DNA from: Escherichia coli
Lineage (GTDB): Bacteria > Pseudomonadota > Gammaproteobacteria > Enterobacterales > Enterobacteriaceae
Length of the DNA stretch: 11,380 bases
Reading direction: 5' to 3' (one strand)
Assembly: GCF_003334255.1 (NCBI RefSeq)
Contig: NZ_QOWU01000083.1
Below, piece after piece: positions 2,277-11,380 of this stretch; the first letter of the stretch is position 1; each line of letters starts with the position of its first letter. A program made the position numbers and the translations under genes. The notes beneath the pieces were generated by a model. That model worked only from the letters and a program-made list of their open reading frames with translations, did not search any database and was not told the DNA's origin.

Positions 2277-2630
2277 TTAATTTATTAGCTTCATCGCATT
2301 TTTTTTGGTCTCTTCATCACTTTTTTGCTCTTGTTGTGAAGAGGATTGAGTGACTATTGAAGAATTAAAATCGGCCATCTCTTTTGGAAATAGCGATCTC
2401 AATATATTCACGATATCTGAAAATGTGGTTTCTTTCGTCAGCAGCTCACATAAAAGGAAAGGGGTCCGGGGATCTTGTCTGTATAAGGCCAGACCTGCCG
2501 TCAGTGCGGCCCGGTTAAGGCGGCTTCGTTCCCCTTGCGGGATACTGTCCAGTGTATCACAAACAATTTTATCTGTTTGATTTACATCTGGATTTAGTTT
2601 GAAGGCAATGGTTCTGCGCTTGTCCATCAT
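2277..2630 (-). CDS. parR: ParR (StbB) centromere-binding adaptor protein of type II (actin-like) partition system
   Basis: 117-aa translation [54 protein letters not shown]... matches my recollection of plasmid R1 ParR. Lies immediately downstream of parM with a TAATG stop/start overlap, the known parMR operon arrangement. Confidence 0.9.
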   Translation of the reverse strand: MMDKRRTIAFKLNPDVNQTDKIVCDTLDSIPQGERSRLNRAALTAGLALYRQDPRTPFLLCELLTKETTFSDIVNILRSLFPKEMADFNSSIVTQSSSQQEQKSDEETKKNAMKLIN

Positions 2631-3592
2631 TAATTACCTATGAGATACATACCGTTAACTAAATCATATTGAGAGTTATTGGTTTTGAAAAAACGTTCAT
2701 CACGAATCTGTGTGTGTTTTTTTACTGCATCGCATATTAATTCTGCGCCACCGCCTATAACCATAACATGAGTATAACCAGAAAATTCATTGAGCGTATT
2801 TAATACACGTTGCTCAAGTTTACGAAGTGCTTCATTCATTGCTTCGGTGACTATTGATATTTTGTTCTCATCATTAATTCGTTGCTTCAGATAGTTATTA
2901 TCTTTTCTGTGAATGATTATATCGTCAGCAAGATAGCTACTTCCTTTTGTTCTCGCAAGAGAAAGGGCATCTTTTACTGCAGATGTAACCAGAGAGACAC
3001 CAAGAGATGAGTCTCCGTATATTTTACTGATCCCCGATAATTTCCCCATTACCTGAGAAATATCTAATGTGGTGCCCCCGAGATCTATAATTAATAAAGA
3101 ATCTAACTCATCCAGTTCTTGTAGAACTTCATAACCTGCCGGTATAGATTCAGGCATGACTTTTACATCTTTTATTGTGAATGTATCCCCGCCATTTAAT
3201 GTAATTTTTTTCCGGAAGTTTGCTTTCTTACGCTCAATATTTTCCGTATTGGGTTGGTTATTTCTGTCGTAATACTCTGTCAGAGGAAGTGTGCAAACAA
3301 TATCCACTTCGCTTACCGGCAGACCACTGGTCAGTAAGGCGTGATGCACTGCAACGACATTAACGTCGCTGTATTGCCATGCGATATTGGTTGTGACTAC
3401 AGCATCCGGGCTGATTGGATCAAATGAATACTGTTCGCCGTTCAGTGTGTAGTTAAAGACCTTTTTATCACCAAAAGAGACTGCCCACTCGCGTTTGAAG
3501 CTGTTCGGGCTAATGTGCTGTTTAATTGTTCCGTCGCTTTCCTGCCACTGTAGTTTGATGTTTGTTGAACCGTCATCAATGAATACCAACAT
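2630..3592 (-). CDS. parM: ParM (StbA) actin-like plasmid segregation ATPase
   Basis: 320-aa translation [22 protein letters not shown]...[14 protein letters not shown]...[11 protein letters not shown]... carries actin-fold phosphate-binding motifs (DDGSTN, DLGGTT, GGGA) and matches R1 ParM as I recall it. RBS AAGGAG lies upstream of the ATG at 3590-3592. Confidence 0.95.
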
Positions 3593-3607
3593 TTATAAAA
3601 CTCCTTA

Positions 3608-3772
3608 TGGTGTTTTTTTGGTGTGTGTTTGGGTATGTTTTGGGTTTTAAGTGGGTTTGTTTGTCAAGTTTACCCCATTTCAACCATCAATCAATGATTA
3701 TTTGTCTTGTTTTGGTGTTTTATTGGGTTGGGTATGGGTTGTTTTTGGGTTTTGTTTGGCGGGTAACAAAAG
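3608..3772 (-). promoter_or_regulatory. parC: parC centromere/promoter region: two blocks of about five 11-bp iterons flanking the parMR promoter
   Basis: 11-bp periodic T/G-rich repeats on the + strand (for example ttgggtatgtt, ttgggttttaa, gtgggtttgtt, then after a ~45-bp spacer ttgttttggtg, ttttattgggt, tgggtatgggt, tgtttttgggt, tttgtttggcg). The spacer, read on the minus strand, contains TTGATT-16 bp-TAAACT and TTGACA. Architecture matches established R1 parC (10 iterons around the promoter). Confidence 0.7.
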
Positions 3773-4108
3773 ATGTCGCCGGGCTCCTCTTTTTACTGCG
3801 CCGGCTGACGCGGCGCGGCAGGAACGCTGCCTGTGGTCAGTGTCCCGCGTCCGGCCGGGCACGGGACGGGCGCTTTTACCGCTCCCGGCTGGCGTTGGTG
3901 ACAGTGTACGCCAGCCCGTCGCCCTTTTCTGATGAACGCCCTTCAAGCCGCTTTCGCGGCATATCCTCGCCGTCAAAAAGACGACGGCTGCGGTATTCCA
4001 CGGTCGGCCTGACCCGTTACCGGACGCGGTGAACAGCCCACAGGCAGCGGGGAACGGGCACCACAGGGGTGCCCTCCCGGTGCCCTCTGTAAGAGAAGGA
4101 GTGCTGTT
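3773..4108 (+). promoter_or_regulatory. Long GC-rich untranslated leader upstream of the methyltransferase operon; candidate structured promoter/ssi-like element
   Basis: About 335 bp with no credible ORF (only overlapping R/P/G-rich frames on both strands). Shares the 13-mer TGAACAGCCCACA (4030-4042) with 8399-8411. Ends with RBS AAGGAG before ATG 4109. Confidence 0.3.
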
Positions 4109-4792
4109 ATGTCCCGTTTTATCCTGGGTGACTGCGTGCGTGTTATGGCCACGTTTCCGGGCAATGCTGTCGATTTCATCCTCACCGACCCGCCGTATCT
4201 CGTCGGTTTCCGTGACCGTTCCGGGCGCACCATCGCCGGCGATAAAACCGATGAATGGCTGCAACCAGCCTGTAATGAAATGTACCGCGTACTCAAAAAA
4301 GACGCGTTAATGGTGAGCTTCTATGGCTGGAACCGCGTCGATCGCTTTATGGCCGCCTGGAAAAATGCGGGATTCAGCGTTGTTGGTCACCTGGTCTTCA
4401 CCAAAAACTACACATCGAAGGCCGCATATGTGGGCTATCGCCACGAATGTGCCTACATCCTGGCAAAAGGCCGTCCACGTCTGCCACAAAACCCGCTGCC
4501 GGACGTGCTGGGCTGGAAATATTCGGGCAATCGCCATCACCCGACGGAAAAGCCCGTTACCAGCCTGCAACCGCTGATTGAGAGCTTCACACACCCGAAC
4601 GCAATTGTGCTGGACCCGTTTGCAGGCAGCGGCTCAACCTGCGTCGCCGCCCTCCAGTCCGGACGCCGGTATATCGGTATCGAGCTGCTTGAGCAGTATC
4701 ACCGTGCCGGGCAGCAACGCCTTGCCGCCGTGCAACGGGCCATGCAGCAGGGGGCCGCGAATGATGACTGGTTTATGCCGGAGGCTGCGTAA
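4109..4792 (+). CDS. Orphan DNA methyltransferase, N6-adenine/N4-cytosine beta class (PF01555-like)
   Basis: 227 aa. Motif IV DPPY near the N-terminus (LTDPPYLVG) and motif I near the C-terminus (VLDPFAGSGSTCVAA), the order typical of beta-class amino-methyltransferases. Good RBS AAGGAG before the ATG. No adjacent restriction endonuclease candidate. Confidence 0.85.
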   Translation: MSRFILGDCVRVMATFPGNAVDFILTDPPYLVGFRDRSGRTIAGDKTDEWLQPACNEMYRVLKKDALMVSFYGWNRVDRFMAAWKNAGFSVVGHLVFTKNYTSKAAYVGYRHECAYILAKGRPRLPQNPLPDVLGWKYSGNRHHPTEKPVTSLQPLIESFTHPNAIVLDPFAGSGSTCVAALQSGRRYIGIELLEQYHRAGQQRLAAVQRAMQQGAANDDWFMPEAA

Positions 4793-6289: not shown

Positions 6290-6706
6290 TGACGTTGGCG
6301 GGGTAAATCCCCGCCTTTTTCCTGCCGGTCCCCGGACAGAGCACAAAGGAAGTCGCCGCCGGCTCCGCTTTACCCGGCCATGCAGGGCATGGCCTTGTGG
6401 TTTTTCAGTTATGTGGCCTCAGCGTCGTGTGCGGGCTGTGCCGTGCCTCCATCTTAGCCGGGCTGGCAGGGATGCAAGGGTACGCTTCGCCGCTGCGGTC
6501 ACCCGGTCCCTCCTTCCCGTCTGCCGTGATTTTCCGGTCGTTCACCCGCTCAGATTTCGCGGTCTCACCCTCCAACTCCCGCCAGCCGTGTGCGTCAGGC
6601 TGCGGCTTCCCTTGCGCCCTGTGCATCCCCGCCTTATCGCCCGGCTTTTATGGAGGCACGGCACCGCCCGGTGTCGCGGAATATGTGAACAACGGAGGAA
6701 AACATC
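6290..6706 (+). promoter_or_regulatory. GC-rich about 415-bp untranslated region upstream of klcA; candidate structured promoter/ssi-like element
   Basis: No credible ORF (the 6129-6734 and 6397-6741 frames are R/C/W/P-rich and overlap). Ends with TGAACAACGGAGGAAAACATCATG (RBS GGAGGA before klcA ATG 6707). Confidence 0.3.
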
Positions 6707-7132
6707 ATGCAATATGCGAAACCTGTCACTCTGAACGTTGAAGAGTGCGACCGTCTCTCCTTTCTACCGTATCTGTTTGGCAACGATTTTCTGTATGCCG
6801 AGGCGTATGTGTACGCGCTGGCGCAAAAAATGATGCCGGAATATCAGGGAGGCTTCTGGCACTTCATCCGCCTGCCGGACGGTGGCGGTTACATGATGCC
6901 GGATGGCGACCGTTTCCACATGGTGAACGGTGCAAACTGGTTTGACCGTACCGTGAGTGCTGATGCCGCAGGCATCATTCTGACTTCCCTTGTGATTAAC
7001 CGCCAGTTGTGGCTGTACCACGACAGCGGGGATGCAGGACTGACCCAGCTTTACCGGATGCGCGATGCGCAGTTGTGGCGTCACATCGAATTTCACCCCG
7101 AATGCAACGCGATTTACGCGGCACTGGACTGA
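6707..7132 (+). CDS. klcA: KlcA/ArdB-family antirestriction protein
   Basis: 141 aa; ...[68 protein letters not shown]... matches my recollection of KlcA/ArdB (Antirestrict family) proteins on IncF/IncP/IncN plasmids. RBS GGAGGA 7 nt upstream. Confidence 0.85.
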
Positions 7133-7789: not shown

Positions 7790-7957
7790 TACAGGGGCAG
7801 GCGGTGGAGGCCGCCTGTCAGCCCGCGCGAAAACCCCTGGCAGGCTGACGCCTGCCGGAAGGGAAGCGGGCCACGCTGGCGCGTCGCCCGTTACCCTTCC
7901 CGTCTGTGATGTGTCTGACTCAGGAGTGTTTCTTTCTTATGTTATGGAACTGTTCCT

Positions 7958-8058
7958 GATGTTGTTGTTCCTTTATCTACTGCTCTGATTCTGACTACTG
8001 CAGTGTTGTTCTGTCTGCCGGGCGCACCTTCGGCTCCCGGCTGCCTGGCGGCATCCGG
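7958..8058. repeat. Copy 1 of a repeated leading-region element (77-bp core with 1 mismatch to copy 2)
   Basis: Core 7982-8058 (GCTCTGATTCTGACTACTGCAGTGTTGTTCTGTCTGCCGGGCGCACCTTCGGCTCCCGGCTGCCTGGCGGCATCCGG) matches 11304-11380 with a single T/C difference. The upstream GATGTTGTTGTTCC (7958-7971) is also shared with 11247-11260. Confidence 0.6.
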
Positions 8059-8409
8059 TCGTCAGGCCCGACTCCGACAGGCAGCTGCTGGCGCACCTGC
8101 CAGTCTCCGCCGAACCCGCTGGCGCGGTTTCGGGCTGCCGCTACGGTCCGATGCGTGAAAACCCCTGGCTTGCAGCGACCGTTCCGGTCGCGCCGCCTCT
8201 GTCGCGCCGTGGCCTGCGCTCCCGGCATCCCGGCAAAAGGCCGCCGGGATGTAAGGGGCAACGCCGTTTCGCGCACGCGCTCTCCGTCGTTGCGGCGGGC
8301 CCCTGCTCATTGCCTGCCGGGTGCCACACACCCGTATGAGTCCCTGTCGCCGGGGGCTGATACAGCCACAACCTGCCGCACTGACTGTCCAGGGTAAATG
8401 AACAGCCCA

Positions 8410-8445
8410 CAAAATTTTTTACCCAAAACCCGGTAAAAAATTTTG
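8410..8445. repeat. Perfect 14-bp inverted repeat (CAAAATTTTTTACC / GGTAAAAAATTTTG) with 8-nt loop
   Basis: 8410-8423 and 8432-8445 are exact reverse complements; an AT-rich stem embedded in GC-rich DNA, immediately after the shared 13-mer TGAACAGCCCACA. Confidence 0.5.
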
Positions 8446-8729
8446 CGTTCTGCCCAGGACAGGTGCGTCAGGCCGTGGCAGTGATGCCCCTTGCGGCGAA
8501 GGTTCTCAAACGGGTGAAGTTCATACCACAGTGAATACAGCAGCAGGTTCCCGCGAAACGTCAAAACCGCGGCTCCCGAAACTCAACGGGTGATGTTCTT
8601 TAAAAATCAGGATTTATTTCAGGCTCCGGCAATACGCATTTATTTGTTCTGTCAGTCATCCGGCTGACAGGTAATGAGAACGCAGGAACAGAAGGAGGAA
8701 AACACCGGAAAGCGTCAGATGCAGATATG

Positions 8730-9108: not shown

Positions 9109-10470
9109 ATGACATTAGCAGCAATCACCATGACCGCCCCGGAAGCCGCCAGCCCTGTGCAGATGTACCGCGCGACCTACTCACCGGATGACAACAAACT
9201 GCGCCTGTATGCCGTGTCACGTCTTGACCCGGAGACGTATAAAAAAGTGCATGATGCTGGTTTTCGCTGGGCACCAAAACAGGCGCTGTTTGTCGCGCCA
9301 GCCTGGACACCGGGCCGGGAAGACGTGCTCCTCTCACTTGCCGGAGAGATTGAGGATGAAGACAGCACGCTCGCTGAACGTCAGGAAGCACGGGCGGAGC
9401 GGTTTACCGGATACAGCGGAAAGCGGGCCAGTGAATCCGCACAGGCACTTGATGAAGTGGAAAGACTGGCCGCGATGATCCCGCCCGGTCAGCCCATTCT
9501 TGTGGGGCATCACAGCGAACGCCGCGCCCGTCGTGATGCGCAGCGTATTGAAAACGGCATGAAACGTGCCGTGATGCTCTTTGAACGTGCGGAATACTGG
9601 GAAGAGCGGGCGCGGTCGGCACTGCTTCACGCGAAGTATAAAGAACGTCCGGACGTTCGCTGGCGTCGTATCAAAAAAATCGAAGCTGATTTGCGCAAGG
9701 CTGAAAAGACCATCGCGCAGTCGCAGAAATATCTGACGATGTGGCGGGCTGAATCGCTGGATCTGAATATGGCAAAACTCATCAGCAGTCATGACCATAT
9801 CAGCGCCTGTTTCCCGCTGGATACGTATCCGCGCCCGGCAGAAAAAAGCCAGTATGAAGGGAGCCGGTCGTTATGGTCGGCCCTGGATGATGACATCATC
9901 ACCACGGAGCAGGCCCGCGAAATTGCGATCCGCTGTCATGAACGGCAGATTCAGCATCAGCAACGCTGGGTTAACCACTATCAGAACCGCCTGATCTATG
10001 AGCGTGCCATGCTGGACGAAAGCGGCGGCGTGGTTACCCGGACACAGGATTTTGAGCCGGGCGGACAGGTTTTCAGCCGGGGCGAGTGGCTGACCATCAT
10101 CCGCGTGAACAAAAGCAACGGGGCGGTGAGTTCAGTCACAACGCCGAATTACAGTTTTCTCGGGTACAGCGGCACGATGAAAGTGACGCCCGATCGCATC
10201 ACGGACTACAAAGCACCATCGGCAGAAGAGGCTGCCATCGCCAGCCAGGCCGCGAAGCGTCCGCCGGTAGTCAACTATCCGGGGGAAGGTTTCCGGGAAA
10301 TGACAAAGGCACAGTGGGCCGCCCTGCCCCGGGACTGTAAGGCCGTGCGCAGTGTGGCAGAAGCAGAAGACCACGGGGCATACCGCTACCGCCGCACAAT
10401 GGACAATAATTTCCGCCTGGTGAATGTGTATATCACCGACATGAAAATCACGGAAATCCCACAGAAATAA
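9109..10470 (+). CDS. Conserved plasmid protein of unknown function (453 aa; possibly the DUF3560 family, unverified)
   Basis: Strong RBS AAGGAGA; long ORF with GC-rich codon usage. Central region is highly charged (R/E/K-rich, probably helical). No catalytic motif recognised by eye. Confidence 0.7.
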   Translation: MTLAAITMTAPEAASPVQMYRATYSPDDNKLRLYAVSRLDPETYKKVHDAGFRWAPKQALFVAPAWTPGREDVLLSLAGEIEDEDSTLAERQEARAERFTGYSGKRASESAQALDEVERLAAMIPPGQPILVGHHSERRARRDAQRIENGMKRAVMLFERAEYWEERARSALLHAKYKERPDVRWRRIKKIEADLRKAEKTIAQSQKYLTMWRAESLDLNMAKLISSHDHISACFPLDTYPRPAEKSQYEGSRSLWSALDDDIITTEQAREIAIRCHERQIQHQQRWVNHYQNRLIYERAMLDESGGVVTRTQDFEPGGQVFSRGEWLTIIRVNKSNGAVSSVTTPNYSFLGYSGTMKVTPDRITDYKAPSAEEAAIASQAAKRPPVVNYPGEGFREMTKAQWAALPRDCKAVRSVAEAEDHGAYRYRRTMDNNFRLVNVYITDMKITEIPQK

Positions 10471-10516: not shown

Positions 10517-11080
10517 ATGCACAGTCAGTTAAGAGAACGTATCCGGCTGATGCGCGCAAGGCTGGATAACGCCGCGCCGGTTGCTGAAATCCGGGCTGAA
10601 TCTCAGCTTTTTGTGACTCCTGCCCCGGTCTGTGATCGCCTGGTGACGCTGGCGGAAATCAGCAACCGTGATCACATTCTGGAACCCTCTGCCGGCACCG
10701 GGGCCATACTGCGGGCGATTCGGGATACCGCGCCGGAGGCCATGTGTGATGCGGTGGAGATTAACAGCGGGCTGGTCCGGTATCTGCGGGAAAATTTTAA
10801 CGGTGTCAGGGTACAGTGTGGCGACTTCATGGAATGGCAGCCGGTGCAGTATTACAGCCGGATCATTATGAATCCGCCGTTCAGTCACGGGCAGGATATC
10901 CGGCATATCCTGCGGGCTTTTTCCCTGTTGCGTCCGGGGGGCGTGCTGGTTGCCGTCTGTCTCAACGGGCCGCGCCAGCAGGAGAAGCTGTTACCGTTTT
11001 CTGACGTCCGCGAGGAGCTGCCGCGCGGCACGTTTGCTTATACCGATGTCCCGACGATGATTATTCGTTTGCGTGCCTGA
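10517..11080 (+). CDS. Small class I SAM-dependent methyltransferase with amino-methyltransferase NPPF motif (putative orphan DNA or RNA methyltransferase)
   Basis: 187 aa. Motif I-like LEPSAGTGAIL followed about 55 residues later by IMNPPFS (the (D/N)PP(F/Y) motif IV), i.e. a gamma-like order. Too short for a separate target-recognition domain. RBS GGAGA 7 nt upstream. Confidence 0.75.
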   Translation: MHSQLRERIRLMRARLDNAAPVAEIRAESQLFVTPAPVCDRLVTLAEISNRDHILEPSAGTGAILRAIRDTAPEAMCDAVEINSGLVRYLRENFNGVRVQCGDFMEWQPVQYYSRIIMNPPFSHGQDIRHILRAFSLLRPGGVLVAVCLNGPRQQEKLLPFSDVREELPRGTFAYTDVPTMIIRLRA

Positions 11081-11246
11081 TGACACAGGGCTGGCGGGAG
11101 GATAAATGCCCGTCTGTCCGCACCGGGAAAAGACCGCGCGCCGGTGGCGCTGAAAGGGGCCGCGCTCACGCGCCGCCCCTTTCATTACGCGGACGTTCTG
11201 ATGGGGGCTTCTGTCTTTTCAGACCTGTCATTTGTCTGTTACTGAT

Positions 11247-11380
11247 GATGTTGTTGTTCCTGCTACTGCTACTGCTACTGCTACTGCTCTTCTTTTTCCT
11301 GCCGCTCTGATTCTGACTACTGCAGTGTTGTCCTGTCTGCCGGGCGCACCTTCGGCTCCCGGCTGCCTGGCGGCATCCGG
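11247..11380. repeat. Copy 2 of the repeated leading-region element, truncated by the window end; contains a (TGCTAC)4-5 microsatellite insertion relative to copy 1
   Basis: 11304-11380 matches 7982-8058 (76/77). Between the shared GATGTTGTTGTTCC and the core there are tandem hexamers TGCTAC x4 plus TGCTC (11261-11289) that are absent from copy 1. Confidence 0.6.

Follow-up and report, generated by a model that had tools for sequence, protein, structure and literature searches.

Does a perfect hexanucleotide repeat next to a single-strand promoter set the spacing or folding of that promoter, is it part of a gene, or does it change in length with little consequence for its plasmid? The question is raised by a stretch of 11,380 nucleotides of Escherichia coli DNA, here called the window. 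An earlier note, made from the letters alone, had placed a slippage-prone hexamer tract inside the second copy of a repeated element of the window, had suggested that its length could tune the spacing or folding of that element, and had held that such variation in a plasmid regulatory element would be unusual.

The window is the leading region of an IncF conjugative plasmid and matches such a plasmid at 100% identity. Its genes run in the order parM, a DNA methylase gene, DUF1380 and antirestriction genes, a DUF3560 gene (9109-10470, from annotation) and a class I SAM-dependent methyltransferase gene (10517-11080 on the plus strand, from the open reading frame and annotation), which is the final gene of certain status ahead of the tract. 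Further on, outside the window, come ssb, psiB, hok, oriT and traM; the tract occupies the spacer that separates the methyltransferase gene from the single-strand promoter of ssb. In the matching plasmid the minus strand bears an F-type nic sequence. From this and from the direction of the genes, the minus strand is taken as the transferred one and the plus strand as the coding one.

Several other features of the window were recorded. At 11156-11179 on the plus strand is a GC-rich hairpin, GGGGCCGCGC-TCAC-GCGCCGCCCC, followed by TTTCATT. It was read from the sequence, folds stably in the prediction for the transferred strand, and is possibly a weak terminator after the methyltransferase operon; a simple terminator scan left it unflagged. 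Two clusters of G/T-rich direct repeats of about 11 bp resembling TTGTTTTTGGG, with 3.5 and 4.9 copies, occupy 3599-3763 directly upstream of parM (2630-3592, minus strand), a layout that we take to resemble the parC centromere of R1-type ParMRC systems. Two long imperfect inverted repeats lie just upstream of the antirestriction gene at 6707 (6432-6670, with 32-nt arms 175 nt apart) and just upstream of the DNA methylase gene at 4109 (3825-4049, with 30-nt arms 165 nt apart). Both fit the recently described "class 2" and "class 3" single-strand promoters, found upstream of ardA/klcA and of M.EcoGIX homologues. At 765-790 a 13-nt unit, AGGGGGCCGCTTG, occurs twice in tandem, in a stretch corresponding to an IS1B annotated in the matching plasmid.

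Sequence and length variation of the hexamer tract

Tandem Repeats Finder returned a repeat at 11260-11288 with period 6, 4.8 copies, 100% matches and the consensus CTGCTA, that is, (CTGCTA)4 followed by CTGCT. Read directly in the register used earlier, four TGCTAC units span 11261-11284 and are followed by TGCTC; GCTACT is a further register of the same unit. The run of 29 nt is the longest of period 6 in the window, and the chance level, taken from 500 dinucleotide-preserving shuffles of the window, had a mean of 12.5 and a maximum of 17. The tract described in the earlier note is thus real. Beside it on the left, at 11244-11258, are the trinucleotide runs (GAT)2(GTT)3, whose unit numbers also depended on the plasmid, with (GAT)1-2 and (GTT)1 or 3 in the plasmid comparison. 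A T-rich flank, CTTCTTTTTCCTGCCGCTCTGATT, adjoins it on the right at 11289-11312.

Units were then counted in 18 fetched homologous loci and the window, giving 19 sequences. All 19 tracts were uninterrupted, and they held 1, 2, 2, 2, 2, 3, 4, 4, 4, 5, 6, 7, 7, 7, 8, 9, 10, 12 and 14 units, so that aligning related plasmids, as had been advised, did not return one constant number. Sequences with 100% identical flanks also differed in unit number, with 4 in the window and in the locus L006 and 10 in the locus L001. A 156-nt query across the tract kept its length in 3 of 52 full-length database matches, the other 49 differing by -21 to +57 nt. The control was copy 1 of the repeated element, which is free of the repeat: its homologous stretch of 156 nt kept its length in 19 of 23 full-length matches (4 of 23 differing). 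The length differences among the 52 matches were all multiples of 3, and not of 6 only, because the (GAT) and (GTT) runs vary too. The tracts of 1-14 units were carried by IncFIA/FIB/FIC/FII plasmids of Escherichia, Klebsiella, Salmonella and Shigella. With a unit of 1-6 nt, a run above chance and a polymorphic unit number, the tract is a simple-sequence repeat (microsatellite or VNTR), and the proposal that it is slippage-prone, with a plasmid-dependent length, agrees with these counts.

The view that such variation would be unusual is outdated, since the polymorphism has already been published as 6-bp GCTACT repeats in yddA (PMC6052338). In that study some plasmids were identical except for the hexamer repeat and the 9-bp CAACAGCCG repeats in traD, and the hexamer was handled purely as a backbone length polymorphism between near-identical plasmids. 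The repeat is the same hexamer in another register, at the same place between ydcA (the methyltransferase gene) and ssb. The kind of variation is also the same, with 6-9 units in one lineage there and 1-14 units over a wider range of plasmids here, and MG197496, a plasmid from that study, was among our matches at 100% up to the tract end. The length polymorphism is thus already known, and what was worked out here is its position relative to Frpo/ssiD. The traD repeats of F-like plasmids are likewise in-frame and length-variable, belong to the same backbone and separate near-identical plasmids (PMC6052338); they lie outside the window, however, and traD is a proven protein-coding gene, which the open reading frame over the hexamer tract is not.

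Position of the tract beside the Frpo/ssiD module

The repeated element is a module carrying a class 1 single-strand promoter (Frpo/ssi). The long stem-loop of such a promoter rebuilds -35 and -10 boxes. Frpo/ssiD promoters of class 1 are known from IncF and IncI1 leading regions (Masai and Arai 1997). Their stem-loop forms on the single strand that enters the cell, and ssb and psiB are expressed early from it (PMC9849209, PMC11541004, PMC12672017). Two positions have been described in the F plasmid, Frpo2 before ssb and Frpo1 before ygeA (PMC9849209).

The plasmid matching the window has three copies of the module: one precedes the DUF3560/methyltransferase operon, one precedes ssb and one precedes a DUF932 gene. 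Copy 1 was placed at 7949-8600 on the plus strand by repeat search and ssiD mapping, and its ssiD/Frpo homologue spans 8252-8595 with the hairpin apex at 8403-8452. In plasmids of the window type it is a third class 1 Frpo copy (9353-9696 in L001), upstream of an operon of hypothetical, DUF3560 and methyltransferase genes. The high-identity part of copy 2, placed on the plus strand by repeat family D2, the three-copy alignment and ssiD mapping, covers 11304-11380 and is cut by the window end, past which its Frpo/ssiD core is expected at about 11574-11920. Near-identity among the three copies starts at GCTCTGATTCTGAC (11304), about 20 nt right of the tract; to the left of the tract a weaker similarity, shared by copies 1 and 2 only, was found (CTGATGTTGTTGTTCC). 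The tract is missing from copy 1, as had been stated earlier, and the matching place at 7970-7990 reads CCTTTATCTACTGCTCTGATT with no array.

The published F ssiD sequence (351 nt) was taken from the supplement of PMC11541004 and mapped onto the locus L006, whose sequence around the tract is that of the window and which served to place ssiD beyond the window. It aligned to L006 1685-2031, and the tract is at L006 1371-1399, leaving a gap of 286 nt to the ssiD edge. Leftward from the mapped ssiD, the conserved repeated element continues for about 290 nt and nearly reaches the tract. The tract therefore adjoins a Frpo/ssiD element on the transferred strand upstream of ssb, in the Frpo2 position, but it is outside the ssiD homology, takes no part in the stem-loop and is missing from the two other module copies, and it is not a member of the Frpo/ssi promoter. 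It had been described as lying inside copy 2; more exactly, it sits at the edge of the repeated element, outside the conserved core, which starts about 20 nt rightward. The tract is the outer edge of the Frpo module, outside the functional core.

Two variants of the right flank were seen. Type 1 is that of the window, in which the stretch from the tract up to the pre-ssiD block is that of copies 1 and 3, and type 2 occurs in L005, L014-L018 and the F33 lineage. Type 2 plasmids (including Klebsiella IncFII, pO157-like and F33 plasmids) have the same tract and left flank as the window, followed from just right of the tract (window 11313 onwards) to the conserved pre-ssiD block by a different sequence that is about 48 nt shorter. 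The T-rich flank is kept with point changes in both variants. This pattern suggests that gene conversion has taken place between Frpo modules, the converted stretch having one end beside the tract. Transposase genes of the IS110 family were inserted in or beside the Frpo2/ssb module of two unrelated plasmids (L017 1650-2634 and L009 2218 onwards), and the junction in L017 is the left edge of ssiD (GGGATGTAAG/CAACTG, the slash marking the junction). In L011 the region is replaced by an element of the IS21 family.

Coding and regulatory readings of the tract

Two plus-strand frames cross the tract. Frame A, from the open reading frame listing, encodes 76 aa at 11080-11310, is called hypothetical in some records, reads the tract as (Leu-Leu)n and is closed by a TGA at 11308-11310 within the T-rich flank. 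Frame B, annotated at the equivalent place in many records and here referred to as yddA, starts at 11232, runs past the window end at 11380 and gives (Ala-Thr)n over the tract. In one record the two genes upstream of the tract are called ydbA and ydcA, the latter being the methyltransferase gene, and this naming fits yddA as the open reading frame over the tract.

It is unlikely that the tract is an in-frame coding repeat of a real small protein whose length or speed of translation changes with unit number. The candidates would be yddA, with (Ala-Thr)n before a hydrophobic segment, and the hydrophobic peptide of frame A, with (Leu-Leu)n and the rare CUA codon. An open reading frame is called here both by PGAP of NCBI and by the published annotation. 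Both frames are open across the tract in every locus, frame A always ending at the same TGA and frame B, whichever right-flank variant follows, going on for about 50 codons beyond the tract and ending just before the same conserved block. The differences of the 52 matches in multiples of 3 also point this way, but they follow automatically from units of 3 and 6 nt, and the DNA around the tract is A-poor and T/C-rich, so that few stop codons arise in any frame.

Other observations speak against translation of the tract. By direct reading, frame B has a TTG start without a Shine-Dalgarno sequence. The long form of frame A is shifted by a 1-nt indel in five loci, and its ATG is missing in L004, L012, L016 and L017. 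Frame A, frame B (in two variants), the open reading frame of copy 3 and that of the minus strand gave nothing significant when searched with NCBIfam, PHROGs and Pfam. A search of 5.8 billion proteins returned only enterobacterial "hypothetical" matches with at least 68% identity, of 51-137 aa and several with frameshifted tails, and no distant homologues. The frame B products of type 1 and type 2 plasmids are similar only where their DNA is homologous. Synonymous and non-synonymous changes in the T-rich flank, counted by eye, stood at about 3:3 for frame A and 2:4 for frame B, too few to discriminate. RefSeq records for 11080-11380 and the homologous loci carry three different overlapping "hypothetical protein" open reading frames, two on the plus strand and one on the minus strand, a disagreement that further weakens the coding reading. 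Frame A is probably not a real gene, the coding status of yddA is doubtful, and a real coding role for the tract is unlikely. Because of the lost ATG and the 1-nt indel, we also rejected the idea that coupling of frame A translation to the stop codon of the methyltransferase gene (TGATG) is a conserved feature. Each variant in repeat number receives a new protein accession, and the locus is in this respect a generator of annotation artefacts.

A regulatory role, in which the tract would act within the single-strand promoter module as a spacer of adjustable length or as part of its structure, we regard as improbable. Unit number would here determine how far upstream sequence lies from the Frpo hairpin, how the two fold or how SSB is loaded, and would in this way modulate early ssb/psiB expression or priming. 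In favour of it, tract and hairpin belong to the same transferred strand, with the tract on the 3' side in predicted single-stranded DNA, and the conserved element extends nearly to the tract. SSB is reported to stimulate Frpo transcription in a review-type statement in PMC11541004. The fold of the transferred strand was predicted for the stretch bounded by the methyltransferase stop and the ssb start, and it included the long hairpin expected of Frpo (z = -10). In the predicted centroid structure the tract was unpaired, with a mean predicted pairing probability of about 0.35-0.40 versus 0.75 for ssiD. The sequence was also rebuilt in silico with 0, 1, 4, 7, 10 and 14 units. Over this range the predicted minimum free energy shifted by about 1 kcal/mol, and the predicted ssiD structure was identical at 0-10 units and 94% identical at 14.

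A fold so insensitive to unit number argues against the role, as do the position of the tract, 286 nt beyond the ssiD edge and about 205 nt away from the predicted hairpin base, and the existence of promoter-module copies 1 and 3 without it. The occurrence of 1-14 units in successful natural plasmids argues against a tuned spacing, and Frpo transcripts would head toward ssb and away from the tract, judging from gene orientation and the minus-strand nic. The modelling does not support a regulatory reading of the tract, and the earlier suggestion of a tuned spacing or folding of the element was not upheld. In L006 1100-2100, a permissive Rfam scan gave chance-level miRNA and sRNA matches (E > 0.02), none of them over the tract, and a promoter scan found no sigma-70-like site. 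The terminator scan gave three terminator-like matches, none at the tract. A Rho utilisation site at the tract was ruled out by inspection, there being no YC dinucleotide in the unit CTGCTA and base counts of C41/G37 over 11190-11345. Hairpin-driven instability of the tract was ruled out as well, the tract alone folding at -3 to -4 kcal/mol for 60 nt versus -19.8 for (CTG)20.

It is very improbable that the tract is translated in fresh transconjugants within a small hydrophobic peptide (frame A or yddA), its length tuning a membrane-active product or ribosome transit and hence read-through from the methyltransferase operon toward Frpo2-ssb; if this were true, plasmid lineages would have a heritable, rapidly adjustable setting for early establishment functions. 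Simple repeats are known to cause assembly errors and some database proteins from the locus have apparent frameshifts, yet we hold it to be extremely improbable that the length differences are artefacts of assembly or sequencing, because the longest tract, of about 89 nt, is below common read lengths, the differences are exact multiples of the unit in perfect tracts, the polymorphism was independently reported from finished plasmids, and, in the same records, the control region without the repeat is stable in length.

Origin and meaning of the length variation

Phase-variable simple-sequence contingency loci of Haemophilus, Neisseria and Campylobacter switch genes through units that are not multiples of 3 within an open reading frame, or through changes in -35/-10 spacing. 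The hexamer tract resembles them in that its short units stand in perfect tandem, slippage would alter their number, and isolates differ in tract length. It differs from them in its 6-nt unit, in forming no promoter spacer (no sigma-70-like promoter in L006 1100-2100, and 286 nt from ssiD) and in switching no credible gene, and we do not class it as a contingency locus. On/off phase variation by frameshift is impossible with a unit of 6 nt. Iterons of the parC or Rep type are repeats of about 11-22 bp with helical phasing and an adjacent gene for the cognate binding protein; protein-binding iterons are unlikely here, with a 6-bp unit, a copy number free to range from 1 to 14 and no adjacent binding-protein gene.

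We consider it likely that the tract is a hypermutable, functionally near-neutral simple-sequence repeat in the spacer between the methyltransferase gene and the Frpo2/ssiD-type promoter driving ssb, that is, between the last gene of the DUF3560/methyltransferase operon and a class 1 promoter of IncF plasmids. The repeat is perfect, its extreme polymorphism is confined to the repeat itself, and it is located outside the promoter core; slippage as the mechanism and the neutrality of the tract are what we infer. Units would be gained and lost by slipped-strand mispairing during DNA synthesis. Loops of 6 nt are poorly recognised by MutS-dependent mismatch repair, and conjugative plasmids undergo extra synthesis with each transfer, rolling-circle in the donor and complementary-strand in the recipient. 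This extra synthesis would add an opportunity for slippage at every conjugative transfer. Gains and losses of units would be tolerated, since they fall outside the promoter hairpin, alter no promoter spacer and leave all reading frames intact.

The tract persists in both right-flank variants and in thousands of plasmids. Mutation dynamics alone can suffice for this persistence, and weak selection is also compatible with it. A point against near-neutrality is that changes in multiples of 3 and two open plus-strand frames would also be expected of coding DNA.

If unit number altered early ssb/psiB expression, the tract would be the first slippage-tuned setting in the establishment programme of a conjugative plasmid, but the evidence points in the opposite direction, and the tract does not appear to represent a new regulatory principle. 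For annotation pipelines it is a hazard, giving rise to spurious differences or to variants of a "hypothetical protein". It is among the fastest-changing sites of the highly conserved IncF backbone, the carrier of much of the clinical resistance load, and it has a modest use as a typing marker that separates near-identical plasmids when outbreaks or transfers are traced.
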